Shown: positions 4,641 through 58,869 of the stretch, piece by piece
Layout: each line of letters starts with the position of its first letter
Position numbering within the stretch: the first letter of the stretch is position 1
Notes under the pieces: generated by a model
Told to the model about the DNA's origin: nothing
What the model saw: the letters and a program-made list of their open reading frames with translations, nothing else
Databases searched by the model: none
NCBI GenBank assembly: GCA_008632985.1
Contig: QPGO01000184.1
Coordinates: 62,001-126,000, forward strand
DNA: 64,000 bases
Direction: 5' to 3'
Origin: Psammoneis japonica
Taxonomy: Eukaryota
Made by a program: the position numbers and the translations under genes

Positions 4641-4968
4641 TTGGTGCTGTACGATCCGTAGTTTTATGTCATTCCTGCTGTTACCGGAGACGATTACTAT
4701 GCTGTAGCCCTACAATTTGAAGTGCTCATTTATTTCGATTCTCTCGATAAAATACGAAGCTTGTGGTCTCTCCAAGGTGGATGTGCTTCTCATGTTGGAT
4801 CTAGAACAGCCCAACTATCTGTATCCCATCAAACTATCGAAACTGACAGAAAAACTGTTGGAAAGTAGCCTCTCTCTCTCTCTCTCTAGACCATATATGC
4901 TCCATTTAGAGTACTATATTATTTGAGTTTAGTATAACAAGGCGAACCATCAAAAAGCAAGGCATATT

Positions 4969-6024
4969 TTAGAGACTACCAAGCTTGTCCCACGCCACTT
5001 GTCCAATGGCTGCATCCTGGGCGCCAGTTCCGGTAAGATCCACGACAATGATTTCGTTTCCTTCACGACCCGGCTTGTCCCCATTGACAATGTCACCAAG
5101 CTCTGCGTACACATCATCCTCCGTCATGACGCCAGCCTGCAAAGCTCCTCGGAGTTCGCCTACTCTCGAAGTCTGCTTGGTAAGGTCCGGAATGTATTTC
5201 GATGCCTTGAGAACATCATTGGGAATTTCTTGCTTGGTGGGTTGGTCAGATCCAGACGCAATGATTGTGACACCCTTGGGATTAAGCCAATCTTTTTCCA
5301 ATACATGTTCTCCTCCTGGAGTTTGGGTAAAGATAACATCAGACGTTTCGCAGAGTTCTTTTGCGGAGGATGCGACTGTAAATGGCATTCCAAGCTCTTC
5401 TTCCATATCCTTGGCGAATTCTTCCGAGCCGGCAAGACCAAAGGCAATGCCCTTGAATGGACGAACGGCAGCAGCGGCGCGAGCCATGTTGCGAGCAATA
5501 GCTCCACAACCGATAAAGCCAATAACATCTTGTTCCGGCGAAGAGCAGTACTTCAAAGACACTGCACCCGCAGCCCCAGTACGTAGATCTGTCATGAATC
5601 GATTTTCTTGAAAGACTCCAAGCGGTGCACCCGTCACAGCATTTACAACAACAAAGATACCGGAACCTGGAGGAAGGTTCTTCTCGGCATTCTTGTAGAA
5701 CGAGACCATTGCCAACTTGACTGTAAAAGTTGGTGTTCCAGAAACATACCCACCCTTGATATGACAATCTCCGGGACCAGCCGCAGGAGACTCTTCAATT
5801 CCAATGTGCATGGGAAGTGGAACGTCCACCTTTCCTTTGGCTAACGCCTTGAAAGCCTCCTCGACACTGGAAATAGCATCGGCGACTGTAAGGTTTGAAG
5901 TTACCGTTTCGTAGTCAAACAACTTTGGTGGTGGAAATCCAGCAGTGGCAAAGGCTCTTGTCGCCACACCACTAGTCATGGCGGTGCGGCGAACGGCATG
6001 TCTCGCAAACGTTGACAGCAACAT
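4969..6024 (-). CDS. Ornithine cyclodeaminase/mu-crystallin family protein with N-terminal mitochondrial-type presequence
   Basis: 351 aa intact ORF; motifs HIKGG, TDLRTGAAGAVS, GFIGCGAIA (Rossmann), DLTGTGAQDAAI; Arg/Ala/Thr-rich N-terminus. Confidence 0.92.
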   Translation of the reverse strand: MLLSTFARHAVRRTAMTSGVATRAFATAGFPPPKLFDYETVTSNLTVADAISSVEEAFKALAKGKVDVPLPMHIGIEESPAAGPGDCHIKGGYVSGTPTFTVKLAMVSFYKNAEKNLPPGSGIFVVVNAVTGAPLGVFQENRFMTDLRTGAAGAVSLKYCSSPEQDVIGFIGCGAIARNMARAAAAVRPFKGIAFGLAGSEEFAKDMEEELGMPFTVASSAKELCETSDVIFTQTPGGEHVLEKDWLNPKGVTIIASGSDQPTKQEIPNDVLKASKYIPDLTKQTSRVGELRGALQAGVMTEDDVYAELGDIVNGDKPGREGNEIIVVDLTGTGAQDAAIGQVAWDKLGSL

Positions 6025-6227
6025 GGCGACAGTTCAAGCTCCGAAAGATTTGTGTCGGTTCATCAGCGACGACCAAAATTATTTGTACCTGATTTCTACG
6101 TAGATTCTACGTGATCCTATGAGGTAAAGATGACGGAATAGTGACGTAGACAGAGGCTGACGTCATATCATGCACACAGGTAATTGATTCATTCGACTGG
6201 TTGAGCACGGGAGGAACAGATGATAAG

Positions 6228-6330
6228 ACTCGAGACTCACTTTACTCTCTACTACTCTAGCTCTAGAGCTACTCTCTCTAGAGAGTAGAGAGTACCGGTA
6301 GAGACTACTCTCTCTACTCTCTAGAGAGTA
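6228..6330. promoter_or_regulatory. TA-rich palindromic CTAG/CTCTAC/TACCGGTA island upstream of the OCD gene
   Basis: ctctagctctagagctactctctctagagagtagagagtaccggtagagactactctctctactctctagagagta, ~200-300 bp upstream of the ATG at 6024; regulatory role is inference. Confidence 0.4.
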
Positions 6331-6631
6331 AAAAGATTTAGGTTGGCGAGCCTACTGGTACAGGAAACGCAAGAGCGCTACAGTACTGTATGTCTATCCA
6401 TTGTTCATAGCCTAATCATCATGTACAGTTGATATTCAAAAATGGAAAATAGTTGTAGCTGTCGCAGAAGACTTCAAAGAACCTACTGCTGTGGAACTCG
6501 TCTCATTTAGGCAGTAGCTTCTGGTTGGTTGTCTTGAAACTAGGTTTATCTTCAAATTATTGGCTTATTAATTAGCACTGTTGGAATCGGTGCGTAAAGG
6601 TAGCCGAATGAAAGAGAATATTTGCTGTCGT

Positions 6632-7162
6632 CTATTGTTTATGTCTTGAAGTCGCAACCGCGAAATAGTTTTCGCCTTTTCGTTTCACAGTCTTGTGTTT
6701 TAAATAGGAGCCCCAAATACTCTTGGCTTCTTCTTTTTCTTCCTCCTCAAATGGATCAGAATCGCTTCGTCTCAGAGGAGCAGCAGTGACGCCCCGCGGA
6801 AGGTCGTAAATCTCCTCGTTGCTCACGTCGGGCAGGTTCACCTTTTTGATTTGTTCCAAGCAATGCAACATGTTGGCTAAATCACGACGCATGGAACCCG
6901 TATCCTCGAGATATCGTATATCTAACAAACTCCGTTGTGCCAAGTTCTTCAATTCGTGCGTCGACACGGGTTCTTTGGCCGACGTGAGTTGCAAATCTTG
7001 AATCGACCATGTTGGCTCTGGTATCAGCACCTTATTTTCGTCGTTTTGTTTGCCGGAAGATAAGTTACGAAGTATTAACAACGTGAACTGTTTATTCTGG
7101 ATGCTACAGGCACGAATCGTGGCTTGTTTTGCCGAGCTCTGGAGTCGAACCATCAAAGGCAT
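6632..7162 (-). CDS. Glu-tRNA(Gln) amidotransferase subunit C (GatC/GatF)-like, probably mitochondrial
   Basis: 176 aa; PTWS, 'ELKNLAQRSLL', 'DLANMLHCLEQIKKV', 'PLRRSD', terminal 'YFAV' follow the GatC pattern. Confidence 0.6.
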   Translation of the reverse strand: MPLMVRLQSSAKQATIRACSIQNKQFTLLILRNLSSGKQNDENKVLIPEPTWSIQDLQLTSAKEPVSTHELKNLAQRSLLDIRYLEDTGSMRRDLANMLHCLEQIKKVNLPDVSNEEIYDLPRGVTAAPLRRSDSDPFEEEEKEEAKSIWGSYLKHKTVKRKGENYFAVATSRHKQ

Positions 7163-7365
7163 TATGCCACGACGCCGCTTTATGCTTGACTACTGTTAAA
7201 TTTTTTTAATATTCAGCAATTGTTGAGGTGCAAATGAATCATCCCTTTGCATTCAATATAGGCAAGTGAAGATCGCCGAAGCGAAGGAGTGGTCAGGGTT
7301 GTGTACAGTAATAATGGGGCCCTATCGCCGTCGCTTTCAACAGCGTCATACATGAATGATGAATG

Positions 7366-8602
7366 GCGATGGATTTTTTCATTATTTATATAAAAATAAG
7401 TTTGCGATTCTTAAAAATAAATTTCACGACTGGCCTCCACGTGGATCTCCAAACGGCCCCAAAGGAGGCAAGCCCTTTCCGTTTCAACGGCAGACGTTAT
7501 TTTTAAATTTATTTAGCCTCGCCGGAACTGTCATCCAACGCATCGTGCGTTGCTCTTCTCTCGTTTCTCGTTTTGTTTCTTGTACATGCAGTGTATGGAA
7601 TAACTTCCACGATGATGGTGTTCCATGTCTACATCATGGTCTCGAATCCCATATGCTGCCAGAGGGTCCGTTTGTTCAGGAACTACACAACGTCGGTGGA
7701 CAACGCTCGCACAGCAGTGGCATTTCGAATCTCAAGATGGCAGGGGTAAATCAAGACAGCGACGGTGCTCCTGACAACGAAGTTGAAGTTATTCAAGTCA
7801 TCCATCCCAATGATGGGAATACCGAGCAACACAACGAAGTTTCGAACAAGGATTCCGACGATGACATTGTTGACGTCTGCTCCAACAACGATGGCAGGAT
7901 CGAGTGCGACAACGATGATTCGATCTCGGATGATGAAGTTGAAGTCATTCAAGTCCACCATCACACCTTGAGAGCGTCTTTCAAGCCATTCCTAATTGCT
8001 GGTGCAGCGTCGGCCATGAGTGTTGTGGTGGGAAATGAATTCGGAGCTGCCTTGAGCGCCGCCTCGGCTGCAAACTTGAAGTCCTTGCCTTTTTCAGAAT
8101 TTGGTAACGCCATGATGACAGGATGGCAATGGCGCTCCGCGTCGTCCACACCCATCATTATCACTGGATAGCCGGAACTCAGTGGCTTGTACGTGCCATC
8201 TAAGTTGCACCTTGAAGTCAGTTGGAACTTTCGCAGTGGGCGCTTTGTCGACATGACAATTCCGAAATCGTCTTTTGATGTGATGTGACAATCAAGGATG
8301 AAAGGCTCATCGTCGCCCAAACCGGGATCATTGACATCTTTCTTCATCTCGTCGCAATGTCGTTGAATCTCTGACACGGCTCCTCCTTCACGTTTACGAC
8401 GGTTCTTCAAGCAAGTCTGGACTTCTTTGTGGCTTGGTAGATTGCCATCGTTGGAGAGAAGATTCTGCTCTGCTAGATGTTCGTGAGGCAAGCCAACCAA
8501 TTGACACAAGATTCCATCAGCCGTCTTGGCATCTACATTTTTCTCAATGTGCTGCTTCTGCTTGTAAGTCAATCCTTGCTGTCGAGTGCTGTGATCCTTT
8601 GT
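7366..8602 (-). mobile_element. Mutator-like (MULE) DNA transposon, partial; transposase fragment ~7961-8602
   Basis: Minus-strand peptide LDGTYKPLSSGYPVIMMGVDDAERHCHPVIMALPNSEKGKDF...LMADAAPAIRNG matches the MULE DDE core; AT-rich terminal segment 7366-7520; sequence absent at the equivalent site in copy 2 (10615). Confidence 0.85.
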
Positions 8603-8603: not shown

Positions 8604-9274
8604 AGTTCTTTTGCGGAGGATGCGACTGTAAATGGCATTCCAAGCTCTTCTTCCATATCCTTGGCGAATTCTTCCGAGCCGGCAAGACCAAAGGCAATGC
8701 CCTTGAATGGACGAACGGCAGCAGCGGCGCGAGCCATGTTGCGAGCAATAGCTCCACAACCGATAAAGCCAATAACATCTTGTTCCGGCGAAGAGCAGTA
8801 CTTCAAAGACACTGCACCCGCAGCCCCAGTACGTAGATCTGTCATGAATCGATTTTCTTGAAAGACTCCAAGCGGTGCACCCGTCACAGCATTTACAACA
8901 ACAAAGATACCGGAACCTGGAGGAAGGTTCTTCTCGGCATTCTTGTAGAACGAGACCATTGCCAACTTGACTGTAAAAGTTGGTGTTCCAGAAACATACC
9001 CACCCTTGATATGACAATCTCCGGGACCAGCCGCAGGAGACTCTTCAATTCCAATGTGCATGGGAAGTGGAACGTCCACCTTTCCTTTGGCTAACGCCTT
9101 GAAAGCCTCCTCGACACTGGAAATAGCATCGGCGACTGTAAGGTTTGAAGTTACCGTTTCGTAGTCAAACAACTTTGGTGGTGGAAATCCAGCAGTGGCA
9201 AAGGCTCTTGTCGCCACACCACTAGTCATGGCGGTGCGGCGAACGGCATGTCTCGCAAACGTTGACAGCAACAT
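8604..9274 (-). CDS. Second (3'-truncated at the N) copy of the ornithine cyclodeaminase gene; probably allelic/assembly duplicate
   Basis: Same sequence as 5354-6024; cut at N8603. Confidence 0.7.
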
Positions 9275-9881
9275 GGCGACAGTTCAAGCTCCGAAAGATT
9301 TGTGTCGGTTCATCAGCGACGACCAAAATTATTTGTACCTGATTTCTACGTAGATTCTACGTGATCCTATGAGGTAAAGATGACGGAATAGTGACGTAGA
9401 CAGAGGCTGACGTCATATCATGCACACAGGTAATTGATTCATTCGACTGGTTGAGCACGGGAGGAACAGATGATAAGACTCGAGACTCACTTTACTCTCT
9501 ACTACTCTAGCTCTAGAGCTACTCTCTCTAGAGAGTAGAGAGTACCGGTAGAGACTACTCTCTCTACTCTCTAGAGAGTAAAAAGATTTAGGTTGGCGAG
9601 CCTACTGGTACAGGAAACGCAAGAGCGCTACAGTACTGTATGTCTATCCATTGTTCATAGCCTAATCATCATGTACAGTTGATATTCAAAAATGGAAAAT
9701 AGTTGTAGCTGTCGCAGAAGACTTCAAAGAACCTACTGCTGTGGAACTCGTCTCATTTAGGCAGTAGCTTCTGGTTGGTTGTCTTGAAACTAGGTTTATC
9801 TTCAAATTATTGGCTTATTAATTAGCACTGTTGGAATCGGTGCGTAAAGGTAGCCGAATGAAAGAGAATATTTGCTGTCGT

Positions 9882-10412
9882 CTATTGTTTATGTCTTGAA
9901 GTCGCAACCGCGAAATAGTTTTCGCCTTTTCGTTTCACAGTCTTGTGTTTTAAATAGGAGCCCCAAATACTCTTGGCTTCTTCTTTTTCTTCCTCCTCAA
10001 ATGGATCAGAATCGCTTCGTCTCAGAGGAGCAGCAGTGACGCCCCGCGGAAGGTCGTAAATCTCCTCGTTGCTCACGTCGGGCAGGTTCACCTTTTTGAT
10101 TTGTTCCAAGCAATGCAACATGTTGGCTAAATCACGACGCATGGAACCCGTATCCTCGAGATATCGTATATCTAACAAACTCCGTTGTGCCAAGTTCTTC
10201 AATTCGTGCGTCGACACGGGTTCTTTGGCCGACGTGAGTTGCAAATCTTGAATCGACCATGTTGGCTCTGGTATCAGCACCTTATTTTCGTCGTTTTGTT
10301 TGCCGGAAGATAAGTTACGAAGTATTAACAACGTGAACTGTTTATTCTGGATGCTACAGGCACGAATCGTGGCTTGTTTTGCCGAGCTCTGGAGTCGAAC
10401 CATCAAAGGCAT
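9882..10412 (-). CDS. Second copy of the GatC-like gene; probably allelic/assembly duplicate
   Basis: Identical translation to 6632-7162. Confidence 0.6.
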   Translation of the reverse strand: MPLMVRLQSSAKQATIRACSIQNKQFTLLILRNLSSGKQNDENKVLIPEPTWSIQDLQLTSAKEPVSTHELKNLAQRSLLDIRYLEDTGSMRRDLANMLHCLEQIKKVNLPDVSNEEIYDLPRGVTAAPLRRSDSDPFEEEEKEEAKSIWGSYLKHKTVKRKGENYFAVATSRHKQ

Positions 10413-10846
10413 TATGCCACGACGCCGCTTTATGCTTGACTACTGTTAAATTTTTTTAATATTCAGCAATTGTTGAGGTGCAAATGAATCATCCCTTTGC
10501 ATTCAATATAGGCAAGTGAAGATCGCCGAAGCGAAGGAGTGGTCAGGGTTGTGTACAGTAATAATGGGGCCCTATCGCCGTCGCTTTCAACAGCGTCATA
10601 CATGAATGATGAATGACGCTGGGCTCGCGGCTCATTCGACTCTCGTTTTCGAATTTATGGAATAGATCATTTCAGCAGATTTTCGTATTCTTTTGCCAGA
10701 CTCCTGTACTATTATTAGTATTACACTCGAAGATATTTCCCCGCCGCACTGCAGGTTATGTGTTGCCGCATGAGGACACGTCAAAGAAAGCCCTAACGTC
10801 TAATCTAAAGCCATCTGACATACTTCGTACCTTAGAAACATTTTAA

Positions 10847-13800
10847 CTACGATGATCCTGATCCAGAGCCCGAGCCCGAGCCAGAGCCTGAGCCAGAGCT
10901 TGACTTCATTTTCTGCACCTCCAAGTCAAGATCTTTCTTTAGTTCCTTTGCCTCGGCTTCCTCTTGCTTCTTTCTGGCTTCTGCCTCATCTTCCATTCTC
11001 GCAATAGCATCCTTCTCATCTCGCGAATCCAAGTCTGAATTCTTCATCGCTTTCTTTCTATCTTTCAGTGCATCCTCCGCCTTCTTGATCTCGTCTTCTT
11101 TCCAGGCCTTTACTTCTGACCAGACCATAAGTGAAAGCCTGTACTGATGTTTGCTAACCACGCGGTACTTGTACAAAGCTATGCAATAGTTCTTCAGGAC
11201 TTCGAGACCTTCTTCCGCGCTCTTTTTTGTTTCGCAGGCTTCGACAAATGTTATGTACTGCAGCATTTTGTCATAGTACTCGGTCCGAATTCCCGAGTTC
11301 TTCAACCTGTTGCACTTCGAACACTTGAAAGTTTCCTTGGGCGGCGCAGGCTCAGACAAGGCATCACCATCTAGTGACTTTTCGCATTGCCAAAGCTGCT
11401 GCCGGGAGTGGTGTAGGTTCTAGTGACGGCTTTCTTGTTGGCTCGGAAGGTGGAGACGGCGTTGGTTGCGGTGTTGGACCTGGCGATGGAGGTGGTGTAG
11501 GCGCAGGAGTTGGTCCAGCAGTTGGAAACTGTGTTGGCTCGTCTGTAATCCGTTTTGTTGGCTCTGACGTAGGATTCATGGTCGGAACAGGAGTTGGAAG
11601 AGGGGTAGGTCCAGGTGACGGCATTTTCCTAGGGAACGGAGTCGGCCTGGCCGAGGGCGGTAGTGAAGGTGCCGGAGTAGGATTCATGGTTGGAGGACGT
11701 GTAGGAAAGGAAGTCGGACCCGGTGACGGATTTTTGGTTGGCTCGAGTGATGGAGACGGCGTTGGTTGGGGTGTTGTTGGTGTTGGACCTGGCGATGGAG
11801 GTGATGTAGGCGCAGGAGTTGGTCCTTCTGTTGGGAACTGTGTTGGCTCGTCTGTTTTCCGTTTTGTTGGCTGTGACGTAGGATTCATGGTCGGAACGGA
11901 AGTTGGAAGAGGGGTAGGTTCAGGAGACGGTTCTTTCGTTGGGAGACTCGTCGGGAGCGGAGTCGGCCTGGCCGAGGGGGTGGTGAAGGTGATGGAGTAG
12001 GATTCATGGTTGGACCTCGCGATGGAGGTGGTGTAGAAGCAGGAGTTGGTCCTTCAGTTGGAAACTGTGTTGGCTTATTTGTTTCTCGGTTTGTTGGCTC
12101 TGGCGTAGGATTCATGGTCGGAACAGGAGTTGGAAGAGGGGTAGGTCCAGGAGACGGTTCTTTCGTTGGGATACTCGTCGGGAACGGAGTCGGCCTGGCC
12201 GAAGGCGGTGGTGAAGGTGCCGGAGTAGGATTCATGGTTGGAGGACGTGTGGGAAAGGAAGTCGGTCCCGATGACGGCTTTCTTGTTGGCTCGACCGATG
12301 GAGACGGCGTTGGTTGCGGTGTTGTTGGTGTTGGACGTGGCGATGGAGGTGTGGTAGGCTCAGGAGTTGGTCCTTCAGTTGGAAACTGTGTTGGCTCGTC
12401 TGTAATCCGTTTTGTTGGCTCTGACGTAGGATTCATGGACGGAACGGAAGTTGGAAGAGGGGTAGGTTCAGGAGACGGTGCTTTCGTTGGGAGACTCGTC
12501 GGGAGCGGAGTCGGCCTGGCCGAGGGCGGTGGTGAAGGTGATGGAGTAGGATTCATGGTTGGACCTCGCGATGGAGGTGGTGTAGAAGCAGGAGTTGGTC
12601 CTTCAGTTGGAAACTGTGTTGGCTTATTTGTTTCTCGGTTTGTTGGCTCTGACGTAGGATTCATGGTCGGAACGGGAGTTGGAAGAGGGGTAGGTCCATC
12701 AGACGGTTTCTTCGTTGGAGAACTAGTAGGGTGCGGCGTTGGCGACGATGATGGCGCCTGTGTTGGTTCGTCAGTAGGAAGCTTTGTAGGCTCTCTGGTG
12801 ACTGGTACTGAAGTTGGCCTCAGAGTAGACTGAATGGTTGGAGAGCCTGTCACATCTGAAGTTTCCGCGGTTTGTTCTGAGGTTCTCGTGAGGCCACAAT
12901 TTTCACATGTGGCGCGACAACCGTCAAATGCTGATACAGAGTTGTTCTCCGAGTCTATCCCAACCAGTTTGCATCGTCTATCTGTATTCCTAGCAACAAA
13001 CTTGCAGTTCCTTTTGGAACCATTGTTCATAACGTGCCTCCATTTTTTGTCATCGGTGCATGCTGATCCACTGTGTGGGTTGATTTCACCGTTCGAAGAA
13101 GGTTCTGTAGGTCGCCCCGTAGGTGAAAGTGAAGGAGCGCTGGTCAGAGAAGATGTTGGAGCCGTCGTAGGACTCGGAGTTTTGCCTGTCGGCGATGTCG
13201 TGGGTGACGCAGTCGGAGCTTTTGTCGGTGAACTTGTGGGAGGCATCGTTGGACTACGAGTCGGGGCACTTGTGTCTAGCGTTTTCTTAGAATCTGCTAA
13301 CGAACCTATTGAGCCCCAAGTATTCTGCTCGATCGCCACAGGGCATTCGCCAGGTGGGTCATACAGGCCGCGTTGTCTATCAAGGTCAAAGTAGTATTCA
13401 TTGTTCGATTTCTGCTTTTTGAAGGAGATGATCATCGGATCTACACCAACGTAGTCAGATACTTCGAACATTTGTTACTGTACAGAACACATCTGAGGCT
13501 CACCTGAAAAAGCACCCGCTTCAACCTCGATTGACGTAAACTTGTCGTTTCTAGGATCGGTCTGATATACACAAAATGTGTGTCCTACAGAGGTGAAACG
13601 AGATAGGGGAATGAATATCCGTGTCGTGTAAGCCAATCTCCACATCAACATTCATGTCATGAATCGACGGCTATTCAAGCGAGCGATGGCGTTCACCCTT
13701 TTAAGAAAAGAAAAAACTCACCATTTCCATGTAGATATAATGTTGGAAGTCCCGGGTAGTCATTGCGCATATGTCGTTGAAATGGTCGACCAAATTTCTC

Positions 13801-22119: not shown

Positions 22120-25100
22120 TGATGTGGCTGCGGTCAGCCGTGTGACAAGTGACAAGTCGACGCCGGGGAGGTACCCGGAGTCATGGCGGGTTCATTCATG
22201 CCCAACCCCAATCGAAAAATGCCGGCAGGGTTTTTCGACCACAACAAAAAGCGCAATGGCAACTTTTCATGATGCTCTTTGTTCGTTGCAAATGGTTCAT
22301 GGCGGTTCGTTTGGTGAAGAGAAAAGCACACCTTCATGATCTCGTTTTCGAGGCACGTTGTCATTTTGGGGGAAATGGATCTGGCCGGCTTTTTGCTGGA
22401 TGACACTGTCTGATGAACAAGTCGCAGCTGCCAGTGGAGCTTCAAACATGTGGCATTTGTTTCCACTGGAGTGGTGACATTGGTGGGTGGAGTTGGTGAG
22501 AGACATTGATGGGGGATGCCATGCTTGCACTGCCAATTGACCCATTTTGTTTGTTCATGAGATGACATTGTGGCACCATGACTTGACGGTTCCGGCTGAG
22601 GATTTGCAGCTGGGAGAGTGTTGGCCGACACGCTGAACAAGAAATTGTGCCCCATTTGTTGCTGTCCATGGGGGTGCACTGACTGCACACATTGTGAGAG
22701 TGAGTTTCCTTTGGATTTCATCATGGCACCCATGACAAAGACTTTTAAAAAGTGGAGCCACACATGGTCAACAAAACATGTCAGATTGATTGACAACATT
22801 TCTTCTTCCCTTTGACTTGTCTCATGTGCAGAATGCAGTGCATCATTTTTTCCTTCTTGTGTTGTGTGGTCACAAAAAATGCAAACCACAACGGCTCCAG
22901 AACAAAGGCCAAGGCAAAAACAGAGCTGCGCGTGAGCAATGTCAACATGTGTGATTTAGCGGCAAAGATGACATTGTCTGATGAGCAAGTCGCAGCTGCC
23001 AATGGAGCTTCAAACATGTGACGTGTGGCAACATTGGTGGGTGGAGTTGGTGAGAGACATTGGTGGGGGATGCCATGCTTGCACTGCCAATTGACCCATT
23101 TTGTTTGTTCATGAGATGACATTGTGGTGCCATGACTTGGTGGTTCCAGCTGAGGATTTGCAGCTGGGAGAGTGTTGGCCGACATGCTGAACAAGAAATT
23201 GCACCTCATTTGTTGCTGTCCATGGGGGTGCACTGACTGTGCACATTGTGAGAGTGAGTTTCCTTTGGATTTCATCATGGCACCCATGACAAAGACTTTT
23301 GAAAAGTGCAGAACAAAAAGAAGAAAACTTGTTGGGTTTGGTTGCATCCGGACCATTTTGCTCGGCAAGAAGATTTGGTGCACAGCAAGGGTCGATGGCG
23401 GATTGAGCCTTCTGTCTGGCACACATCAAAAGGTCCAGCGATGATGACCTGTCAAGAGCATGACCAAGGACATGACAAATGACATGTTCATCCGCCTGCA
23501 CATCCATGTTCAAATCTGCCCAGCAAAAGTGCTGATGTTGTTTTTGAGTGTGGGGCCCACCATGGAAGCACTTTGCACCCGGCACAATGTGACACCTGTT
23601 GCCCTTGCACCATCAGCTGTAGCTTGTTTCATTTGAAGGAGGTTTTCCATGCCTGGGTCATTTGGGAAATCTTGATTCCAGAATCACCTCTAAACAGGGA
23701 ACAAGCATGGACCCTCCTGTTGTTGTTGGCAGCCCTGCATTGGCTCGTCAATGTTTTTTGAATGGATGGAAGGGTGGTGCATCTGACGTTGAACCATCTG
23801 GAGTGTCAGCCATGCTGTGGTGTGCTTGAGTGCAATTGCACCTGAGCTGCAGCATTGATTTCAGGATGTGGCGGCTCCATCCTCACTCCTGTCCTCCTGA
23901 GACAGCTCTGCAGCTTTCTCCGGCTGGCCCAGATTCAATCATCTCACACATTCTTTGGAGTGAGGGGAGTCACACAGTTGCCAACAACCAAGCCATCCCA
24001 AACTGGCAATCCACAATTGTCATCAACACACAGCATTTGTGTCTGCTGGCAATGATGCGCCAAGTTGACATCATTGCCATGTGTTGGCTCAACACAGTTG
24101 CACTGCACTGAATTGTTGCTCATCTGTGGACCTTGTTCAAAATGACTGCTGCATGTCTGACTTGTGGCCTGTCCTCAAAAAGGACCAGTTCAAACAATTG
24201 TGCTCCAGCCAACATTGCAATCCATTCCCAGCTTTTGCATGGTGGGAGTCGCAGCAACCTTTTTTGTTTTAAAGCTGTGCCTGATTGTTTGTCTCCTTTC
24301 ATTTGAAATGCAGATGCCACACGAGGCACGTGCAACTTGTCTTGTTCATTGTCATCCATGTTGTTTGGCATCAGTGCAGCATGAAACTCTGTGGATGCAT
24401 CAGCATTGCCACTGGGAGAAGTCTCGAAATTGCCAACGTGGTTGTGACCATTTGGGGGGAGTCTCAAGCCAGCTGCTGCTAAAAAATGTCTGCTCCTCAG
24501 TGCCTTTGGGGGGTTGCCAGCACCTGGTGCAATTCTGCAGCACGTGCACAAGAAGATGACGAGTCTGTCCGCAGCTTTCACGGCTGGAGACTTCCCCCAC
24601 ATTGAACATTGATGGACCTGCACCATGATGACAGCCGCGCGGCCCTCATTCTTTCTCTGCCTTGTGGGTTTGGGTGGACAACATCACAAACATGAGAAAG
24701 ACAAAGTGTTGGTCCTGGTTTGGATTCAAAGGGACCAGCAACAGGGGACGGACTGTGTGGAAACAGCAGCAAGGAAGTCTTTGCAGCCACAGCACATTTT
24801 GCCATGAAGATGAGGGCAATGAGAGACGATTCGATGTGTCATGTGCAAACGAGCAAAAGTTGGCTTGTTGCTTTCCACTGCGCAGTGATGGTCCAAGCTC
24901 GATGGCATGTCTTGCTCTCGCGACAAGCTGGTTTCGAGAAAACCCCACCAGCAAAAGAAAGAGATTCATCGGAAAGCAATGCAACCTCATCCTTGCCATC
25001 ATCCTTTGTTGTTTCCATCAGATTCATTGTCGACAACTGATGCCCTTGTCAAGGAACAAATGAAGATGGCTGCACATGCCGACATGCGCGGGTCTGGAAT

Positions 25101-26440
25101 GAACAACAAAAAGATCAAATGGGTGTGTTTGCCGCTGAATGAATGCTTGATTGTGCTTTTCTCATGATGCTCTCAGATGTCTGTCGTTTGTCATGCAGGA
25201 ATTGTTGCAAGTTGGTTGACTGATTGGGACAAAGAAGAAACCAACAACAGCTCAATTGAGCCAGTTTTTAACTGCACACATTCTGCTGCCATTGCTGTCC
25301 GAATGCTTGACAACAAGGAAGTGTCTTCTCCTCTCAGTGGGTCATAAAATGAGCACGCACTTTGGGGCTGCAGTGGAAAGGAACACCTCGCGTTGATCAA
25401 CGCAGCCAGCTTAACAAGCTCGGGCAGAGGCATTCAATGCGGGAAGTCCTCAAAAAGGAGCTGGTCTCATGTGCGTCATGATGTGAGGTGTGCACGGTGC
25501 AGCACAACATTTGGAATTTTGAACATGCACTGTTGCATTTTTTGTTTTTGTTTTTCCAATTCTGTGCGCATCCTTGCATTCACACATCCGATGGGTTGGA
25601 CACTGTGTCGCTCAAAACCGAGTGCGGCAAGCAGTCCCAAGACCGCAAGGATTGTGCAAATTCAAATTGTCATTCACATGAAAAGGGCAGCCAACTCATC
25701 CATTTTGTTTGCCTTTAGCCTTTTCGCAGGTGGTTCCGCCAAATCCATTTGGCTGTCACTTGACTTCCTCTTTCTGGGGTTTGGGCTTGGGAAGGCCAGA
25801 CGGCGTCATGGAGCACACATCACAGTCGCTCCATGATGGCCACAAGGTTTGCAATCTTTGAAGAGACGACTGGCTTGGCAGGCCATTTCATGACAGGTGC
25901 CTCCTCACTCCTTTCAAATGGAGTTGTCGAGGAAGCTGTGAAGTGCGATTCTTCTGTGGAAGCAATGCTTGGTTCATCTGGAGCTGGTGTTTCAGAGGGT
26001 GTTGAAATTGCAAGCTTCTTGGTGGGCTTGGTCAATCCCCTTCCAGTCGTGATTTGCACTCGTCCAAAAAGGTCAGTTCGTTCGTCAATGTCTGCCTTGT
26101 CTTTTTCTGCTTGGGATGAAATTTCCATTCGTCTAAAACGTTCAACCAGGTCGTCTAACTCTCCATTGTCTTCTTCACCACTGGGCACTTGATTGTGCAG
26201 GGGCTTGGGGACTCTGTTGTTTGGTTCAACACGGGGTGCTAGATTGCACAGGGGTGCCGTAACAAGGACTGGAAAGCTGGACGGAAGCAGTCGATGCTGT
26301 GGTTTCATCTGACACAGGGGCGCCACAAGGAGTGGACAGCTGGACAGAAACTGCAGACGTTGTCGTTTAGTCCGACACAAGGGCGCCGCAAGGATGAGTG
26401 GAAGGGCCAGACAGAAATGGCCAATGTCATCGTTTAGTCC
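22120..26440. other. TpA-depleted hypermutated block B
   Basis: Only about 16 TA sites seen by eye over ~4.2 kb, about 13 of them YTAR. Confidence 0.9.
22400..23306. repeat. Diverged direct duplication (~22400-22752 vs ~22969-23306)
   Basis: Alignable throughout; substitutions are mostly transitions, many at TA/CG/TG/CA positions. Confidence 0.9.
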
Positions 26441-27350
26441 GATGCGGGTTGCAATGTCCATGGGTTGGGCATTCGCAGTTGATAAAATAGAACGCACAAC
26501 ATCAACCGTGAGGAGTTTTGCAGGCGATGTGACGCGCGCAAGAGGCGTTGGCATGTTTCCCGGCGTTGGACAATCATTTGAAAGCGGGAACTCGAAGATC
26601 GCCGCAGCCAAAACCGAGGGACTGGAACTCGTGTTGTCAAACTTAAGCAAAAAATTTCCACGGACGTTCAGATTGGGGGGCATGCGGAAGTTTTTGAGGC
26701 CTTTGGTGACGAAAGACTCGATTTGGCTCACGTTGGTCGCGGAGGATTTGAACTCAATCCCGACACAAACGGAGGTTGGAGCGCAAGCGAGAAAGACTTT
26801 CTTCGAGTCCAAGGTAGAATTGACAGCCTTGAAAGGCACATTGAGGGGATGGACTTTGCCAAGGGCTTGGGCGAGTCCGGAATTGGGCGTGATCGGAAGC
26901 CGGTGAATGCGCTCGACCTGGGTCGCGCATGATTTGAACTCATTCGCGACACAAACGGAGTTGGAGCGCAAGCGAGAAAGACTTTCTTCAAGTCCACGGT
27001 AAAATTGACAGCCTTTAAACGCACATTGAAGGAATGGACGTTGCCAAAGGCTTGGGCGAGTCCGGAATTGGGAGTGATCGGAAGCTGGTGAAGCCTCTGA
27101 GCCACGCCTCGTACGACATGCGGGTGGAGCTCTCATGTATAACAATCGACAGAGTCTTTTTTGTCGGCGTGGCAACAACGTCGTGAGTCGTGTCCGCTTC
27201 TTCATCGTCGCTGCGATTCGAGTTTGCTTTCAAAGCGAACAAGGTCAAGACGGAAACGGCGGCAAGAGGATCGTTGCGGGTCAAAGCAACGACACCACCA
27301 GAGATGATAGTAGAAGAGAGGATGGTAACGACGGTCGAAGAGAATTTCAT
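25820..27350 (-). pseudogene. Degenerate or frameshifted gene of unknown function with ~185-bp and ~60-bp internal repeats
   Basis: Signal-like N-terminus MKFSSTVVTILSS (27350) in a different frame from the 461-aa ORF; repeats 26745-26907 vs 26932-27092; 3' half lies in block B and lacks Tyr. Confidence 0.45.
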
Positions 27351-31973: not shown

Positions 31974-32019
31974 ATTGCACTTCAGAATTATGCGGGTTGC
32001 GCATTTGGTGGCTTAGTGC

Positions 32020-35000
32020 AGAGAGAAGGAAGGAAGACACAGGATGCCATGAGGTTGCCAGCACCTCTGTTTTCTCTTGCTTGGTCAATTTTCCTTCTCA
32101 GCACCGACTGAAGAGACTGATGCCGCAACAGCAGCAGCACTTCACCTTGTCACACAGACAATGCTTGTGCTCCAAGCCAGAGCAATGGTTTGAACATCAA
32201 ACAACTTCTTTTGTCGGTGGCAAAGCAGACACAAGTCCTGCAGCATTTGAATGCAGTGACACGTGAGAAGCTACAAACAATGATGCCACGTGTTTGCTTT
32301 GATTGCGGTGCAGCAGCTTCACGCGATGTAGCGCCTTCTTAACCTCATCATGAAGACACGATCTCGAAAGAGTCGAAGCATGGCATGTTCTTCAGGTGGG
32401 ACCCATGGACCCATGCTAACCCGCTCCGACAGATTCAGACTGGGCAGTTCTCGTGGCAGGAGGATGCAATCGCCAGCTGCTGTTCTGTCGATTGTCGCAT
32501 CGTCATGCATCCCCTGCCCGAATCCCACAGATTCGCAAGTGGCAGTTCGCAATTAACGTTTTTCAAATGAGCCTCATTTCACGACTAAATTTTGTTCGAA
32601 CCTGCCTCATCAGCGACCCCTTTTGGCGAGGGCAAATGCTGGGCAAACCTGCAGCTTCAAAAAAATCACAACGTAGAAATGCGCAGAATCAGTGCCGCAA
32701 GCAATCCCATCAGAGGCCCATCACGGCACAATCGGCAAAATCAGTTCCGCTGCTGAAGCACTCACAATCCTCTTGCTCTTTGTAGAGTTGCGGTTGCACC
32801 CCTTGTTGCCATTGCAGTTGTGCTTTCTGTGCTGTTAACTCAACTTTGTGCCCAGCTTCATTCTGGCGTGGTGGGCACTGCAGCTCACAACCCACAACAA
32901 GGAACTGTGTTTGCTGCTGTGGTTTTCTTGCCTCAGCAGCACCCCTTTGCATTGATTGCTGGTGGACAACATTTGGCTTGCGCTGGGTTTCCCACCATCA
33001 TGACGGTCCCCATGGGATTCAGAATGAGATGTCCGCTGACTGCTGCTTTCTCGCCTGTCTTGAGTTCTTCTCTTGCAGTGGCTCAGAGGACCGTCGCCGG
33101 TTCTTGCAATTCTCCTCAAACTTTGTGACTCACCAGTGCTGTTTGTTCTTTTTTCTCTTCTGTGCAGATTGCACTGTGCCGCCCCACTTTCCCTCTCAGA
33201 TGGCTCTTGCTTTTGTTGGAATGTTGTCAGAAGATTGTTGAAAGAATCCAGGTGGTCCGAGCCGTTCAAGACTTTGCAGGCGAAAAGAAGAGATGAGTCG
33301 AGTCACTAGCCAACTTGATGAAAAAGTGCTCAGAGACATCAAGAAACTTTGCACAAAGAAGAAGTGCGGGCAAGACAAAGCGGACAAGGCTGCGATTGAA
33401 GATTGCACAGGCTCGGGCTGCTCGGAGATTGCAACAAGTTGCTTCGTGGTCATCAAACAATGCTGAATCCTGAAATGCTGAAGACACGAGCCAACCATGT
33501 GGATCAAGCCCTCCAATGCTGTCCAAAGCTGAAGTCTTTCAAGGGCATTGTGTGTCGTGGTGTGGAGCTTTTGCAAGAAATGTGCAGTTCATTGAAGCCT
33601 GGCAGCACATTTTTTGACCCAGCATTTTTGAGCACATCTTGCAAATGGGAAAAGTGCAAGAGCTTTCTTTCTGGCAAAGGTGGCTGCAGCACACTCTTTG
33701 AGATTGATTGTAAGATGGGTGTGGACGCAGAGCCACTGGCAAAGAAAAAGAACAAGTGCAAGTGCAAGACATTGTTTCGACCAAGTGCAAAGTTTCTCAT
33801 CAAGTCTGTTGAACAACGAGTTGATGCCTTCTTTGGAAAGATCACTTGTGTGTCCATGGAGCAACCAGCAAACTGGTGAGGGAAGTGAAGCAATGGGCAA
33901 GGCAAGCAAGGTGAGCACACCCACAGCAATTTGCAATTTACTTTTGCACATGCTCTCAGCTGGTTCTTTAGTTGCAAATTTAGATGCTGTCTCACCACAT
34001 GATGACGGTGCCAAAACAGTTGTGTTGATGTCCGGATCTCTGCAGTCAGCTTTGCAGTTCATGACTCCAGTTGGTGCCTTTCTCATTTTGTCTCTGGCAG
34101 AGAGTCAGCATTGTTGGTTGAATGATCACGAGCATGATGCCACAGTTGCATTGAAAAGCAAAGGTCTCCTGTGCATTGTCCTCTTCCAAAGCCTCGCAGC
34201 ATTCCGAATTGGGTGATCTGCCGTGTTGTTCTTCGAAGCCCATCATCTCTCTTTCTGTGCATCGTCAACAGCACTTTGAATGTTGCGCCCACTGTTTCTC
34301 TTCTTTGGTCTCATCATTCTGAGCTCCTCCAACCAGAGCAGTGCAGAATTGCCTGGTGGCCTGTCCATTTGTGAAATTGTCCACTTTCGAAACACAATTG
34401 TCTCCTCACTCAAGAAAGGCTTTCTTGTGACAACAGAGGCACCATCATCCAATTCTTTTCAAGCTTTGGCCTCCAACTTTTCCAAGCAGAGCAGTCCTTG
34501 GTGTTGACCCGGACACATGATTGTTCCATGTCTGTTGCAACCAGCGCAATCTCCCTCATGTGCATTTTGTCACAATCATGGTCGCGGACAAAAACCAGTT
34601 CCATCATTGGCAGTTTTCCCTGCAATCCAACACAACACACAATTTCAAATTGCTTCCAAAGAGTGTTCTTGTTGTTCATTGCAGTTCGCTTCATGCAAAA
34701 TGTGTCTTGCCACCGTGACAAGTGCCTCATCATCCCCACAATTGTGCCACGCTGCACCAAATGTGTCCGTCCCTCTTGAATTCTTGAATCAAGCACATCG
34801 CTCAAATTGACAATCCACAGCATCCTCCCACAGGATGATCATTCCACAAGCAGAGTTGTTTGCAAAATTTGTTTTGTGCTTGAAATGAGCAGAGTCACAC
34901 ATGTGTGGTTGCACTTTTCACAGGTGTTCCAATTTTTCAAAAACCAGCCAAGGCAGCCACTGTGGGCTCCAAACAATTTTTTGACACATTTTCAGCAGCA

Positions 35001-37500
35001 AATGTGGCACTGCACCAAAATTGTCATTTTTTGATGGGTTGACAGTCAATTTTTCTGAAGACCACATGTTTGCAATGCTTTGTTTTGCAGCCCAGCATCT
35101 TGTTTTTAGAGTCAGCTCACTCTTTGCTTGGAAGAGTTTCACCCCAACTGTCCGTTGCATGCATTTTTTTGTGTTTCTGCTGAATTCATTGCTTTGTCAC
35201 ATTAGACACCACACAACTCAGCTGCCAATCTGCTGATTGCACAACAGTTGTGTGCACCCATGTCCTCATTGCATGTCTGACAACAATGAAAAGACTCTCC
35301 TCTGACTCCTCATTGAACCAAGCTCCTTTTGACAGAAAACACCGCTGCAAAGTTGAGTCACAACAAAAACAATTGTGAAAGCTCAGTGCAAAGTGTGTGA
35401 GCCAAAGCAAGTTTGTTGGTCGAACGCACCACAGAAAGGGGGCACTGAAATGACCAGATGGCTCCACATTTGCCAGATGCTTTGAAGACAATCAATTCAA
35501 GGAGCCATGCAATGACAACCCTGATCCCTCAGCAGCGACACAAGCAGACAGCAACAAAACTGCAGCAGTGACACCCACTCTGCTTCCAGCAAGGAGATGG
35601 AAAAGACAGTCAGTCAAAATTCAAGCAACAATGACTGGAGTTGTGACAACCAGCTCAGAGATGGCACACATCATTTGGTGACTGATTTTTGAATGAAGTG
35701 GCCAAAACTGACAAAACAAGAGACTCAAACATGCGCGACATTTGGGATTTGGAAAAGCCTTCAGGTGTTGTGTTGACACAACAGGAGAAAATGACACATT
35801 CCAAAAAAGAGGGGAAAACTGTGCAGGGGCAAAGCCAGCCTTGTGCTCAACTGTGGACAGAGGCAAGTTGCAGAGCACAAGTGATGTGGGCTGAGTGCAC
35901 TGATGCAGTCCAGATGCCATTGAATGATCTTGGTGTGAGCTGCAAGTCCAACCTGCTCCATCTAAAAAAAAACACACGCATGTGGGCACATGCTGCTTGC
36001 ACTTCAACCAGCGCCACACACTGCACAGCAGAAAGCAAGCAAAGAAGAGCCAGAAAAGGTGGCAGCCACAAATGCAAATTTCAAAACACAGTTCATGGAA
36101 TGGGTTGCCAGTGTCAAACATGTGTCTCCTGGTCATGGTGGCACCCTGAAGTGCTCCTCCCTTGTGCCTTGCCGGGGTTTGGCATGTCTTTGAACTTCAC
36201 ACACAGCTTGCCAGTGGCACAACTGCAGGCTGACAAATGTGATGCCACCAAAGGAAAGGCACAAAGTTTTTGGTTTGTTGGCAACATGTCAAGCCACAGA
36301 TGGATCATCTGCCCAAGTGCAAAGTTCTGGCTGCTGCAAAAATCAGCCAAAGAAGTGAAAGCCTCTGCAGAAGAACCTGGCTGGTGGTTGCTGCTGCTGT
36401 GTGCTGGAAACAAGCNNNNNNNNNNNNNNNNNNNNNNNNNNNNNNNNNNNNNNNNNNNNNNNNNNNNNNNNNNNNNNNNNNNNNNNNNNNNNNNNNNNNN
36501 NNNNNNNNNNNNNNNNNNNGGGGGGGGGGGGGGGGGGGGGGGGAGAGTTGGGTGACATGATGTGTGTGCACTGCACACTGCCGCCATTTGCGCACAAACA
36601 TGACACAGGCATTTGACTTGAGTGGCAAGCTTGTGAACTTGACTCATGTTGAACAAATTGTGGGAAAAACAGTGCTTCAATTGCCATGATCTGCTCTGCT
36701 CTGCTCTCTGGTTGTTGGAGCCACCCATGGAACAAGTGGTTGCATGGATGTCTTGCAGGGAGGAGCAGAAAGAAACACCTTTTGACACACACTTAAGTCA
36801 GCTCTCAATGACAACATCTGGGCTGTCACAAGCAACTTTTTCATCAGCTGCCATCCTTTGTTGAATGGTGCAACATGGGAGGATGAGCCCAGAGGTCACA
36901 CAGAGATGCTGCTGGCAAGAGAAATGCAGCTGAAGTGTGGTGGTGAGAAAACCCAAGTGCTGAGTGCTGAGACAGATCACAACGTGTGGTCATGCACGAG
37001 CTGGCTTCAACAAGAACAGGGCATGAAGCAACACAATGGGCCAAAGACGGCTGGCACAAAAGAGTGGCAAAAGCTCAGGTCAAATTGCAGGTGGAACCCA
37101 ACATGCACCAGCACTCCAGCAGAAAACAGAGCAGACCAACTCACAGAGAGATCCGAGCAACCATGCCCGCAGCTGGGCATCTCGTCTCTCTGACGAACTC
37201 ATCAAGAAAGAGCTCCAAGCTGCTTTTTAAAAGAAGCAATGCTGTGCTTTGATTCTTGCATCAGTGTGAGTTTTAAATGCAATGAATGCATGTGCTGTAC
37301 GTGCCGCCGCCCACTCTGTGTTGTTTGGTCTGTCCCCAAGACCAAAACAGAAAACAGCCGTCAGAGCAAAGAGCAAAGGCGTCAGATGTGACCAACTCAA
37401 GACTCAAGTCGTCATCCGCCACCATCCACACGCCCGCCACGTCGCTCGTTCTTGCTCGTTTGCTTTTTTGAATCACGGAGCAACGGATCGGAGTCGAATG
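32020..37500. other. TpA-depleted hypermutated block C (contains assembly gap 36416-36519)
   Basis: TA nearly absent; survivors mostly ttag/ctaa/ttaa/ctag; many overlapping Cys/His-rich spurious ORFs. Confidence 0.9.
33290..33879 (+). pseudogene. ADP-ribosyltransferase (VIP2/C3-like R-S-E family) relic
   Basis: AAIEDCTGSGCSEI / NKLLRG ... VCRG ... FLSTSC ... LFEI ... NKCKCKTLFRP correspond to YT..GY..IN..LR, YRG, STS and ExE.L motifs with Tyr->Cys and Glu->Lys changes. Confidence 0.8.
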
Positions 37501-37541
37501 GCAAGAGCGTCAAAGCGGGACCGAGTCATTATTTCGACGCC

Positions 37542-49100: not shown

Positions 49101-49749
49101 TGGAAGCACATGGAACAAATGAAATGCGCTCATTTTCCAGCTGATTCCAACTCTTCAAACTGATTCTCCAACCCCAGACACCAGACAGAACACTTCACAG
49201 TTGCAACACTTTGAAAGTTGCTCCAGTCGGAAATGATGCAAAAATCAGTCACCAAGTCATTTGTGGATGGGAGTGCCAGTTGATTTGAGTTCCTGCACTC
49301 AATTGGCATCTGGCCACACTCTTTTGCAACCAAAGACCACAGCTTTCCCACCTTTTCCAAGGATCTCTGCTCAGCACATTTGGCAAGATGCGCAAACCCA
49401 GTGTTCCAAGCAACGGAGACAGATGCTGGGCAAAGTGCAGTCAAAGTTGCATCTCCTCCCAGATTGGAAAATGTGCAGCAACATTCAATTTCATCATTGC
49501 CTTTGGCGCTGCATTCTTCGTTTGATCTGATGACTGCATTGTCGCCGCCATTTGTTGTGTCCCAGCTGCCATCACTCCCACAGCCCACCTGATTGTTGCC
49601 TCCAGCACCCCAATCAACTTCCATCCAAAATCTTTGTGCAAGCAACCAACAGCCAAGGTGGGCTTTGACCTGCAGTGTCACATCCAGCTTGTTTTGCTCA
49701 AGCCTTGCCAAAGGTTGCTGCACTTGTTCTGTTGCTGTTGTTGCATCTC

Positions 49750-58674: not shown

Positions 58675-58869
58675 TGTATATCAAATAAGGGTCGTTTACG
58701 TAGAGACGCAGCACAAAGACAGTGTTGATTTGTTTAGCTAAAGGCCGCTTCCCCGTCGCCGCGTTCGTCATGGGCACAGACCTTTCGCTCTCGCTCGGCG
58801 CTCGGCCTCTCAGCACAGCGCGCGGTGGATGGGCCATTCAGCTTTCTTACCAGAGGAGTCCCCCCCCCA

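Follow-up and report, generated by a model that had tools for sequence, protein, structure and literature searches.

TA-erased blocks in a diatom contig

The window analysed here, 64,000 nucleotides of Psammoneis japonica DNA (contig QPGO01000184.1 of assembly GCA_008632985.1, positions 62,001 to 126,000, forward strand), contains five blocks from which the dinucleotide TA has been nearly erased. Long open reading frames (ORFs) outside the blocks encode ordinary eukaryotic enzymes, namely an ornithine cyclodeaminase, a sulfotransferase, a Fam20C-like kinase, an aldose 1-epimerase and an OSCA/RSN1 channel, and the closest relatives of the epimerase are diatom proteins (50-52% identity for those of Seminavis and Fragilaria, 60% for the best match). 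Thus, the window is intron-poor nuclear diatom DNA. The five blocks are each 2.5-9 kb long, occupy ~40% of the window and hold 0-6 TA per 500 bp where base composition predicts 27-40, compared with 8-56 elsewhere in the window. Their footprint is that of A:T>G:C transitions confined to regions, specific to TA, equal on both strands and governed by a context rule.

Block limits were drawn from the positions of TA and of gaps. Unless stated otherwise, counts refer to core blocks with a combined length of 22,207 bp (A, 1938-4198; B, 22218-26110; C, 32737-37465; D, 43603-51378; E, 58852-62399) and to an outside reference of 33,453 bp from the same window. Each block has one sharp edge, to within ~100 bp, and the other edge often fades across 0.3-1.2 kb.

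The blocks differ from the host by transitions only

The observed-to-expected (o/e) ratios within the blocks are 0.07 for TA, 0.45 for CG, 1.69 for CA and 1.70 for TG, as against 0.62, 1.00, 1.16 and 1.12 outside, and AT, AA, TT and the other dinucleotides barely differ inside and outside. TA is the only depleted member of the NA series in the blocks, next to AA at 1.25 (1.12 outside), GA at 1.02 and the raised CA. Summed pyrimidine-purine steps amount to 24.3% inside and 24.0% outside, and their totals are preserved within each flank class (2842 versus 2833 expected, 2482 versus 2519, and 2528 versus 2335), with a surplus of CA and TG about equal to the TA and CG lost. The same conservation is seen in the total variation distance between 4-mers of the blocks and of the outside sequence, which is 0.011 in the purine/pyrimidine (R/Y) alphabet, 0.079 in the strong/weak (S/W) and 0.119 in the keto/amino (K/M) alphabet, the yardstick being 0.023 between two halves of the outside sequence. 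The blocks match the rest of the window in the purine/pyrimidine alphabet, as expected of host-like DNA altered solely by transitions of TA and CG into TG or CA.

An earlier reading of the letters alone (the original prediction) had proposed a mutator with a TAY or RTA motif preference in place of generic GC-biased drift. The composition bears this out, as AT, AA and TT are undepleted and the G+C content is 48.6% inside the blocks and 46.7% outside.

Surviving TA sites define a context rule

The proposal arose from a count by eye of about 16 TA sites in block B, about 13 of which were YTAR (Y, pyrimidine; R, purine). A full count across 22120-26440 gives 17 TA sites, comprising 13 YTAR, 3 RTAR and 1 RTAY, and all ten of the individually listed YTAR positions are genuine to within one base. 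The same bias had been claimed for blocks C and D and is found there (10/14 and 16/26), as it is in each of the other cores (A, 5/9; B, 8/10; E, 9/16). Over all core blocks, 75 TA sites divide into 48 YTAR, 26 mixed (RTAR or YTAY) and a single RTAY, whereas the 1473 outside divide into 229, 801 and 443, respectively (chi-square p 1e-26 for the three classes; Fisher p 8e-20 for YTAR against the rest). An internal control needs no outside reference: pyrimidine-purine steps of the core blocks are 23.2% Y_R-flanked and 23.6% R_Y-flanked, against which surviving TA is Y_R-flanked in 48 of 75 cases (binomial p 6e-14) and R_Y-flanked in one (p 4e-8).

Equal depletion of the NTAN classes had been named as the outcome that would speak against a context rule. 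Relative to outside density, the retained fraction is instead 0.32 for YTAR, 0.049 for mixed sites and 0.003 for RTAY, and among single tetramers it ranges from 0.65 for TTAA through 0.15-0.26 for TTAG, CTAG and CTAA to 0 for ATAT, ATAC and GTAT. The view of YTAR as the surviving class therefore needs qualification. YTAR is the best kept, as proposed, but it is not immune, being depleted about 3-fold with only TTAA near normal.

TAY had been suggested as the preferred half-site, and the survival data agree. When the two strands of a TA step are treated as independent half-sites, the rates are 0.58 for TAR and 2.4-2.8 for TAY, a ratio of 4.2 (95% interval 2.9-6.3). This model predicts a mixed-site retention of 0.033 where 0.049 is observed, and assigns 81% (75-86%) of mixed-site hits to the TAY strand. 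The products can be examined independently of the survivors at R_R flanks, where 501 TA and 371 CG were lost and 630 CA and 252 TG gained; mass balance puts RTAR>RCAR (equivalent to YTAY>YTGY) at 89% given strand-symmetric CpG decay, with bounds of 52-100%. Among single contexts TAC>TGC is the strongest, the gain at T_C flanks being 228 TG versus 47 CA; the most enriched tetramers of the blocks include TGCA, GTGC/GCAC and CTGC/GCAG.

The preference extends beyond the immediate neighbours. Surviving sites have T at -2 in 56% of cases versus 28%, and a pyrimidine at -1, which gives the palindrome T-Y-T-A-R-A. The hexamers TTTAAA and TCTAGA had already been noted as recurrent; among 102 TA sites within wider block limits, TTTAAA is present 12 times (6 outside), TCTAGA 7 times (16 outside) and TCTAAA/TTTAGA 8 times (14 outside). 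Sites of the form TYTARA, and TTTAAA most of all, practically resist erasure, which makes the protected motif six bases wide. The surplus of TTTAAA suggests either that the process recurs and new TA lasts only where its context protects it, or that the ancestral sequence was rich in AT.

Direction of change: TA to TG and CA

A pair of paralogous segments (4429-4828 and 46900-47267; Table 1) gives the direction of change. Since the two halves of the copy at block A differ in TA content, the edge of that block cuts through the repeated element and does not end with it. The paralogue has 17 TA, 13 of them in gap-free alignment, and at these 13 the block D copy has CA five times, TG five times, TA once (within TCTAGA), AA once and GA once; other dinucleotides of the pair are retained in 30-71% of cases. 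In the translated frame, FHVIPVVARDDH of the block D copy faces FYVIPAVTGDDYY of the normal copy. In the half that is depleted in block D alone, TA lies opposite TG or CA. Where both copies are TA-poor (4400-4634 against 47030-47300), ~235 columns include 6 adjacent TG/CA double differences.

A second line of evidence comes from a protein-coding relic in the open frame at 44300-45364. Residues 168-351 of this frame (44804-45349) are a remnant of an orphan diatom family of ~760 aa, specifically of its N-terminal domain, and the frame has 82 relatives in a library of 1.84 billion proteins (best E 3.8e-32); by tblastn within the window, the family is represented by this piece only. Tyr codons (TAY) had been expected to be hit preferentially, and indeed all four Tyr of the closest homologue, P0121, over 183 aligned residues face Cys, Cys, Cys and His, the Cys codons being TGT, TGC and TGC. 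Where 81 homologues have Tyr, the frame in block D has Cys 28 times, His 20 times and Tyr in 0 of 153 positions, whereas five normal homologues used as queries have Cys plus His at 6-8% and Tyr at 17-34% of family Tyr positions. These are pairwise tallies, used in place of a column-wise test that was empty, the family multiple alignment having no column with at least 30% Tyr. The DUF6940-like ORF of block D, taken as a further Tyr test, had no homologue at E 0.001.

The same signature is seen in P0125, a 761-residue member of the orphan family from another contig, which contains 0.5% Tyr and 3.7% Cys. Opposite family Tyr, its Cys fraction is 0.26 versus a family median of 0.007, and its His fraction of 0.05 equals the median. 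This near-exclusive replacement of Tyr by Cys agrees with the preference for the TAY strand. P0125, which lies on a 22-kb contig of another assembly, resembles a hypermutated copy that is still open over its full length. Since the paralogue, the Tyr positions of the homologues and P0125 concur, sequence comparison indicates that TA is the ancestral state and that Tyr codons were converted, mostly by TAY>TGY; judging from P0125, the process also appears to reach beyond the window.

The orphan family itself (P0121-P0202) has a conserved C-terminal Cys/His motif and many diverged public copies, and may be encoded by a mobile element. An AlphaFold2 model of one member, P0134, is confident, with a predicted local distance difference test score (pLDDT) of 84, and a Foldseek search of the PDB and BFVD libraries with it gave no match at E <=0.001. 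Pfam matched none of 8 members, and an Atlas look-up returned only unnamed diatom clusters, at 0.84. A metagenome scan gave two distant loci, which at 22% and 36% identity, TA o/e of 0.57 and 0.35 and 60% G+C are not comparable; a word-index search with P0125 retrieved P0125 itself only, and a scan of viral contigs with P0121 had no match.

Both strands are struck

The numbers of TG and CA are 247/259 in block A, 466/394 in B, 497/524 in C, 797/851 in D and 376/351 in E, with only block B deviating mildly from balance (p 0.015). Both strands were struck about equally. This balance is central to the question of whether the changes were made in RNA, in transcripts of elements that underwent ADAR- or ADAT-like A-to-I editing before being reverse transcribed and inserted. 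Editing of that kind would account for A>G with a strict 5' U/T and for the conversion of Tyr to Cys and not His in P0125, as one-strand editing gives, but it would raise only one of TG and CA, whereas the two go up to the same extent in each block and in the majority of 500-bp bins. The machinery is also missing from the blocks: Pfam scans of 95 ORFs of at least 100 aa and of six read-through frames across all five blocks found no transposase, reverse transcriptase, integrase or capsid, self-BLAST revealed neither long terminal repeats (LTRs) nor terminal inverted repeats along the edges of blocks, and poly-A tails and target-site duplications were not seen in the blocks. In addition, the depletion fades into host flanks, and a tandem duplicate and relics of host genes are affected alike. 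Editing at the RNA level is, in our judgement, very improbable.

TA erasure is separable from CpG decay

The fading edges resemble a lower dose of the same treatment, with 5-7 TA per 500 bp, 24 of 53 sites YTAR, 5 of 53 RTAY and normal CpG. At block B, for example, the fading zone (26111-27300) has 15 TA, 7 of them YTAR, and 87 CG, a normal number. Within block D, CG runs at 12-29 per 500 bp in 43500-47500, which is near normal, and at 4-5 in 48000-50000, while TA stays at 0-4 all along. TA erasure is therefore separable from CpG decay, which is confined to parts of the same blocks; being patchy and unable to remove TA, CpG loss is not the cause of the erasure. The loss of CpG to TpG and CpA expected of methylation decay is nonetheless present (CG o/e 0.45), and judged by it the blocks are presumably methylated in part.

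These observations bear on a repair-based origin, in which deamination of methylated CpG would leave T:G mismatches that are processed by long-patch, non-canonical repair with a Y-family polymerase of the Pol eta type, so that TA drifts away slowly as a by-product. Pol eta is known to insert G opposite T at WA sites (WA>WG), as in somatic hypermutation. The overlap of the blocks with CpG-depleted, presumably methylated DNA, the occurrence of A>G after T on both strands and the gradual fading into flanks all suit such an origin. However, WA includes AA, which is undepleted in the blocks (o/e 1.25 versus 1.12 outside). Moreover, TA loss is near-complete (0.003 retained at RTAY) and uniform over block D despite its near-normal and nearly CpG-free parts, the fading zones have normal CpG yet 4-fold fewer TA, and left edges are sharp to ~100 bp. 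We consider a repair by-product quite unlikely.

Contents of the blocks and assembly support

The features of the blocks are collected in Table 1. Besides the orphan-family piece and the paralogue, they comprise host-type gene relics and a multi-copy repeat, and the scans described above found fragments only, with no transposable element or other complete domain in any block. A DNA_pol_B_exo1 match in block D is below threshold (E 5.6e-4). Rfam gave 0 matches over the whole window, the Ctr ORF has only a chance match among PDB sequences (E 0.41), and no RNA dataset was listed as containing block B. Thus described, the blocks look like old, fragmentary and partly repetitive decayed DNA made up of orphan-family fragments, gene relics and a multi-copy repeat. 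The left edge of block E adjoins a putative gene for a mitochondrial-type ribosomal protein S17, as read from the ORF translation.

Table 1. Blocks and the features associated with them (window coordinates)
Feature	Position	Strand	Remarks
Block A	1893-4466		TA-erased and CpG-poor all along; 0-6 TA and 1-8 CG per 500 bp
Paralogue of 46900-47267	4429-4828	+	68% identity over 408 bp; left part in block A, right part from ~4634 with normal TA
Block B	22173-26482		Sharp left edge 22109/22172; right edge fades 26111-27300
Tandem duplication, multi-copy family	22399-23311	+	Block B; 22399-22757 and 22967-23311, 90% identical
Block C	32015-37529		Left edge fades 32015-32736, right edge sharp; N gap 36416-36519
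Block D	43536-52393		Left edge sharp, right edge fades 51379-52393; 0-4 TA per 500 bp
Open frame of 355 codons	44300-45364	+	Block D; without Tyr
Hypermutated copy of 4429-4828	46900-47267	-	Inside block D
DUF6940-like fragment	49133-49747	-	Block D; PF22086, E 1e-6, 29.6 bits (cut-off 27)
LRR_6 leucine-rich-repeat fragment	50055-50462	+	Block D; PF13516, E 4e-9
Ctr copper-transporter relic	51224-51752	-	In the fading right zone of block D; frame-split into 51435-51752 and, next, 51224-51457; PF04145, E 8e-10, also matched in a read-through frame
Block E	58849-64000		Left edge sharp; partly depleted from 62400 to window end
DUF4336, C-terminal 35 residues	59337-59441	+	Block E; PF14234 positions 281-315 of 321, E 2e-6, 27.7 bits, just below cut-off 28.5

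The tandem duplicate of block B belongs to a repeat whose summed unitig depth is 1083 in 22334-23000, compared with 67-70 in 23001-24334. Variation among its copies is mostly transitional, with 273-288 changes per transition type versus 50-71 per transversion type. The two tandem copies differ by 4 adjacent TG/CA double differences and by one TTAA versus TTGA.

Across the right, fading edge of block B lies a 469-codon open frame without a Pfam match (25823-27229, minus strand), which includes a 182-bp tandem repeat (26726-26907 and 26911-27092). In contigs of sequencing run X1, 169 bp of this stretch (26922-27092) are skipped, which indicates a repeat number at 26726-27092 that varies among copies or alleles.

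The sequence of the blocks appears to be real. Block B has a unitig depth of 62-71, next to 53-62 for the flanking genes, an independent unitig assembly of run X1 matches it with 0-2 differences per piece of 725-1163 bp, and the raw-read assembly of the same run contains 89% of sampled block B words. The equal depth and the agreement of the independent assembly disfavour contamination or an assembler artefact. An artefact would take the form of modified-base miscalling at TA or of chimeric assembly, and block B was found in one sequencing run only, perhaps the source data of the assembly. Yet that run reassembles to the same sequence, and sized N gaps suggest scaffolds built from short reads. 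Nor would miscalls turn Tyr into Cys in an unrelated database protein, P0125, or cause frame decay and CpG loss at the same places, and an artefact is accordingly hard to credit at all.

A different view is that the blocks are foreign or viral DNA that natively avoids TA, or that the host selects against TA, for example under a TA-cutting nuclease or TA-targeting transposons. Their discrete borders and the weak DNA polymerase B exonuclease match in block D could be taken in its favour. In R/Y terms, however, the blocks cannot be told apart from host DNA, they contain the host-type relics Ctr, LRR_6, DUF4336 and DUF6940, a paralogue with normal TA lies in the same window, and unitig depth equals that of the flanking genes. 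The replacement of family Tyr by Cys or His, in frames that are broken, has the character of damage and not of codon choice. A foreign or selective origin is highly improbable.

Several features of the window lie outside the blocks. A 2019-bp direct duplicate (5354-7372 and 8604-10622; 99.9% identity), of normal TA density, carries an ornithine cyclodeaminase/mu-crystallin gene; the second copy starts right after a single N at 8603, and its frame also includes a MULE transposase domain. It either arose very recently or is an artefact of the assembly or of haplotypes. A tandem array at 11423-12743 consists of ~290-bp units, 83-90% identical, within a 529-codon frame with PT-repeat matches, and the region is strongly skewed towards G over C (GC skew +0.24 to +0.36) and towards T over A. 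Around a 333-N gap, 56000-58123 is AT-rich (G+C 25-30%) and flanked by an inverted repeat (56184-56334 and 56849-56705, 79%); diverged tandem repeats follow the AT-rich stretch at 57508-58123, where TA is above expectation at 56 per 500 bp.

Comparison with known systems

Repeat-induced point mutation, known as RIP, is described in Neurospora and other ascomycetes, and RIP-like hypermutation at TCG/CpG in basidiomycetes, in the consulted portions of three papers (PMC7296669, PMC3318451, PMC5381629). By analogy, RIP would be the functionally closest known system. As in RIP, decayed DNA of mobile or duplicated origin forms kilobase blocks with normal genes in between, only transitions are seen, on both strands and under a dinucleotide rule, conversion is near-complete and leaks into flanks, and decay of methylated cytosine goes alongside. 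RIP is triggered by sequence duplication; the repeat at 22334-23000 (depth 1083) and the multi-copy family fragment of block D would suit such a trigger, yet most of block B looks single-copy and the 2-kb duplicate is untouched.

The chemistry, in contrast, runs the other way. RIP makes TpA from CpA, whereas the diatom blocks lose TpA and gain CpA and TpG without lowering of G+C, and the host is a diatom and not a fungus. RIP is diagnosed by a TpA/ApT index above ~0.89 and a (CpA+TpG)/(ApC+GpT) index below ~1.03; the blocks have 0.06 and 1.89 (0.69 and 1.17 outside) and fall on the other side of both. As cytosine deamination cannot give A:T>G:C, an enzyme class other than that of RIP is needed. 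RIP itself depends on a cytosine methyltransferase of the RID/Masc1 or DIM-2 type. Many diatoms are reported to have DNMT4, a relative of the RIP enzyme RID whose function is given as not known (PMC9998398). Cytosine chemistry of the DNMT4/RID type cannot give the footprint, because the change is A:T>G:C.

The A>G signature after T directs attention to the adenosine deaminases of tRNA (TadA, ADAT2/ADAT3), which convert A to inosine, read as G, and have U or T directly before the edited A, as is the case in the blocks. Their natural substrate is U33-A34, and bacterial TadA reads U-A-C, matching TAC>TGC as the strongest block context. Natural members, however, act on RNA loops and not on chromosomal DNA on both strands, and we know of no TadA/ADAT member that hypermutates genomic regions. 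mRNA editing in the sexual stage of fungi, another use of these enzymes, favours UAG, the equivalent of which is among the better-surviving contexts of the blocks. ADAR hyper-editing of double-stranded RNA and retrotransposon transcripts also gives clustered A>G in repeats, but its substrate is RNA, it affects one strand, it is lax about the neighbouring base (U or A but not G on the 5' side) where the blocks are strict for TA, and it is restricted to animals; changes on the transcribed strand only, in retro-copies, are not what the blocks show, since TG and CA gain equally.

Pol eta in immunoglobulin somatic hypermutation likewise produces regional A>G at A preceded by T. It differs in striking AA as well, in a low frequency per site, in strand bias and in its confinement to one locus of vertebrate B cells; TA and AA would both be hotspots, whereas AA in the blocks is not reduced. 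APOBEC3 resembles the inferred system as a short-motif deaminase that inactivates mobile DNA and leaves fossil hypermutated copies, but according to the section of PMC4866542 consulted it acts by C>U (plus-strand G>A) on single-stranded cDNA and is strand-asymmetric, whereas the blocks show symmetric A:T>G:C. The C>T or G>A changes typical of APOBEC are not found, TA having become TG or CA at an unchanged G+C.

Proposed process

Taken together, these results make it probable, though by no means certain, that a regional, DNA-level, motif-dependent A:T>G:C mutator acted on silenced or decayed DNA, with a RIP-like function and the reverse chemistry. In the proposed scheme, 5'-TA-3' would become TG or CA by an A:T to G:C transition at either base pair of the step. 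The A (or its paired T) would be struck ~4 times faster in T-A-pyrimidine than in T-A-purine, so that RTAY would vanish, mixed sites would fall to ~5% and YTAR to ~30%, a near-complete conversion. The near-completeness, the sharp edges of ~100 bp, the six-base resistance motif and the independence from CpG decay point to a dedicated, regionally targeted enzyme system that would inactivate silenced or repeated DNA. Candidate triggers would include duplication, chromatin state and methylation.

The favoured chemistry would have a deaminase that requires a 5' T convert adenine in DNA to hypoxanthine, which is read as G; it is favoured because tRNA adenosine deaminases edit A after U and bacterial TadA reads U-A-C. 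ORF and Pfam scans of the window revealed no gene for a zinc deaminase of the cytidine deaminase (CDA) fold. Modification of the thymine in R-T-A would leave the same footprint, and sequence cannot separate the two. The same regional system could thus have thymine as its modified base, for instance through a TET/JBP-type dioxygenase yielding 5-hydroxymethyluracil (5hmU) or 5-formyluracil (5fU), bases that mispair with G, and hence T>C, the complement of TAY>TGY. A>G on one strand is T>C on the other, and all of the evidence for an adenine mutator fits thymine equally well. 5hmU of dinoflagellates favours TpA and TpC, and 5fU is mutagenic. No data favour thymine over adenine, however, and to our knowledge neither a TET/JBP-type thymine-modifying enzyme nor 5hmU or 5fU is known in diatoms; we hold this variant to be unlikely.

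Several points weigh against the proposed adenine mutator or soften the evidence for it. The retained fractions presuppose that the blocks once resembled the outside sequence, an assumption that the internal control and the R/Y spectra ease but do not remove. The mass-balance share drops to 0.52 if CpG decay is placed entirely on one strand. The blocks have three times the outside density of TTTAAA, for which survival alone is insufficient. Of the mixed sites in the paralogue pair, 2 were struck on the strand that the TAY rule predicts and 4 on the other, in a small sample of 68% identity and uncertain ancestral state, and the evidence from P0125 is at the protein level alone. The TG/CA double differences within the block B duplicate were dropped as proof of TA ancestry, as an ancestral CG yields the same. 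Lastly, most of block B is single-copy-like at >=80% likeness (depth 67-104 in 23001-25001), and the 2-kb duplicate at 5354-7372/8604-10622 is unmutated despite its 99.9% identity, so that duplication alone would be no trigger, unless this duplicate is very recent or an artefact of assembly.

Significance

We know of no natural adenine mutator of chromosomal DNA, the genome-defence hypermutation systems known to us (RIP, APOBEC) all being cytosine deaminations, and it took laboratory evolution of a tRNA enzyme to obtain adenine base editors. A search of full-text literature, to which subscription journals and supplementary files did not belong, gave no account of hypermutation from TA to TG/CA, whether in diatoms or in other organisms, and as far as we could search the footprint is undescribed in print. 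More tentatively, and with slightly more doubt than belief, we propose that diatoms possess a natural, regionally targeted hypermutation of duplex chromosomal DNA at adenine or its paired thymine, a kind of 'reverse RIP' with a recognition rule of 4-6 bp for which R-T-A-Y would be the best site and T-Y-T-A-R-A immune, brought about by an undescribed deaminase or thymine modifier aimed at silenced or repeated DNA.

If true, a major group of marine primary producers would have a genome defence of a new type, and a candidate enzyme of biotechnological value would be indicated. It would explain how mobile DNA is neutralised in diatoms, with Tyr codons turned into Cys and His and the stops TAA and TAG removed. 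Because only TGA stops are left, TA-free blocks give long spurious open frames, of which annotators should be warned. The same blocks would serve as a simple marker of silenced DNA in diatom assemblies.

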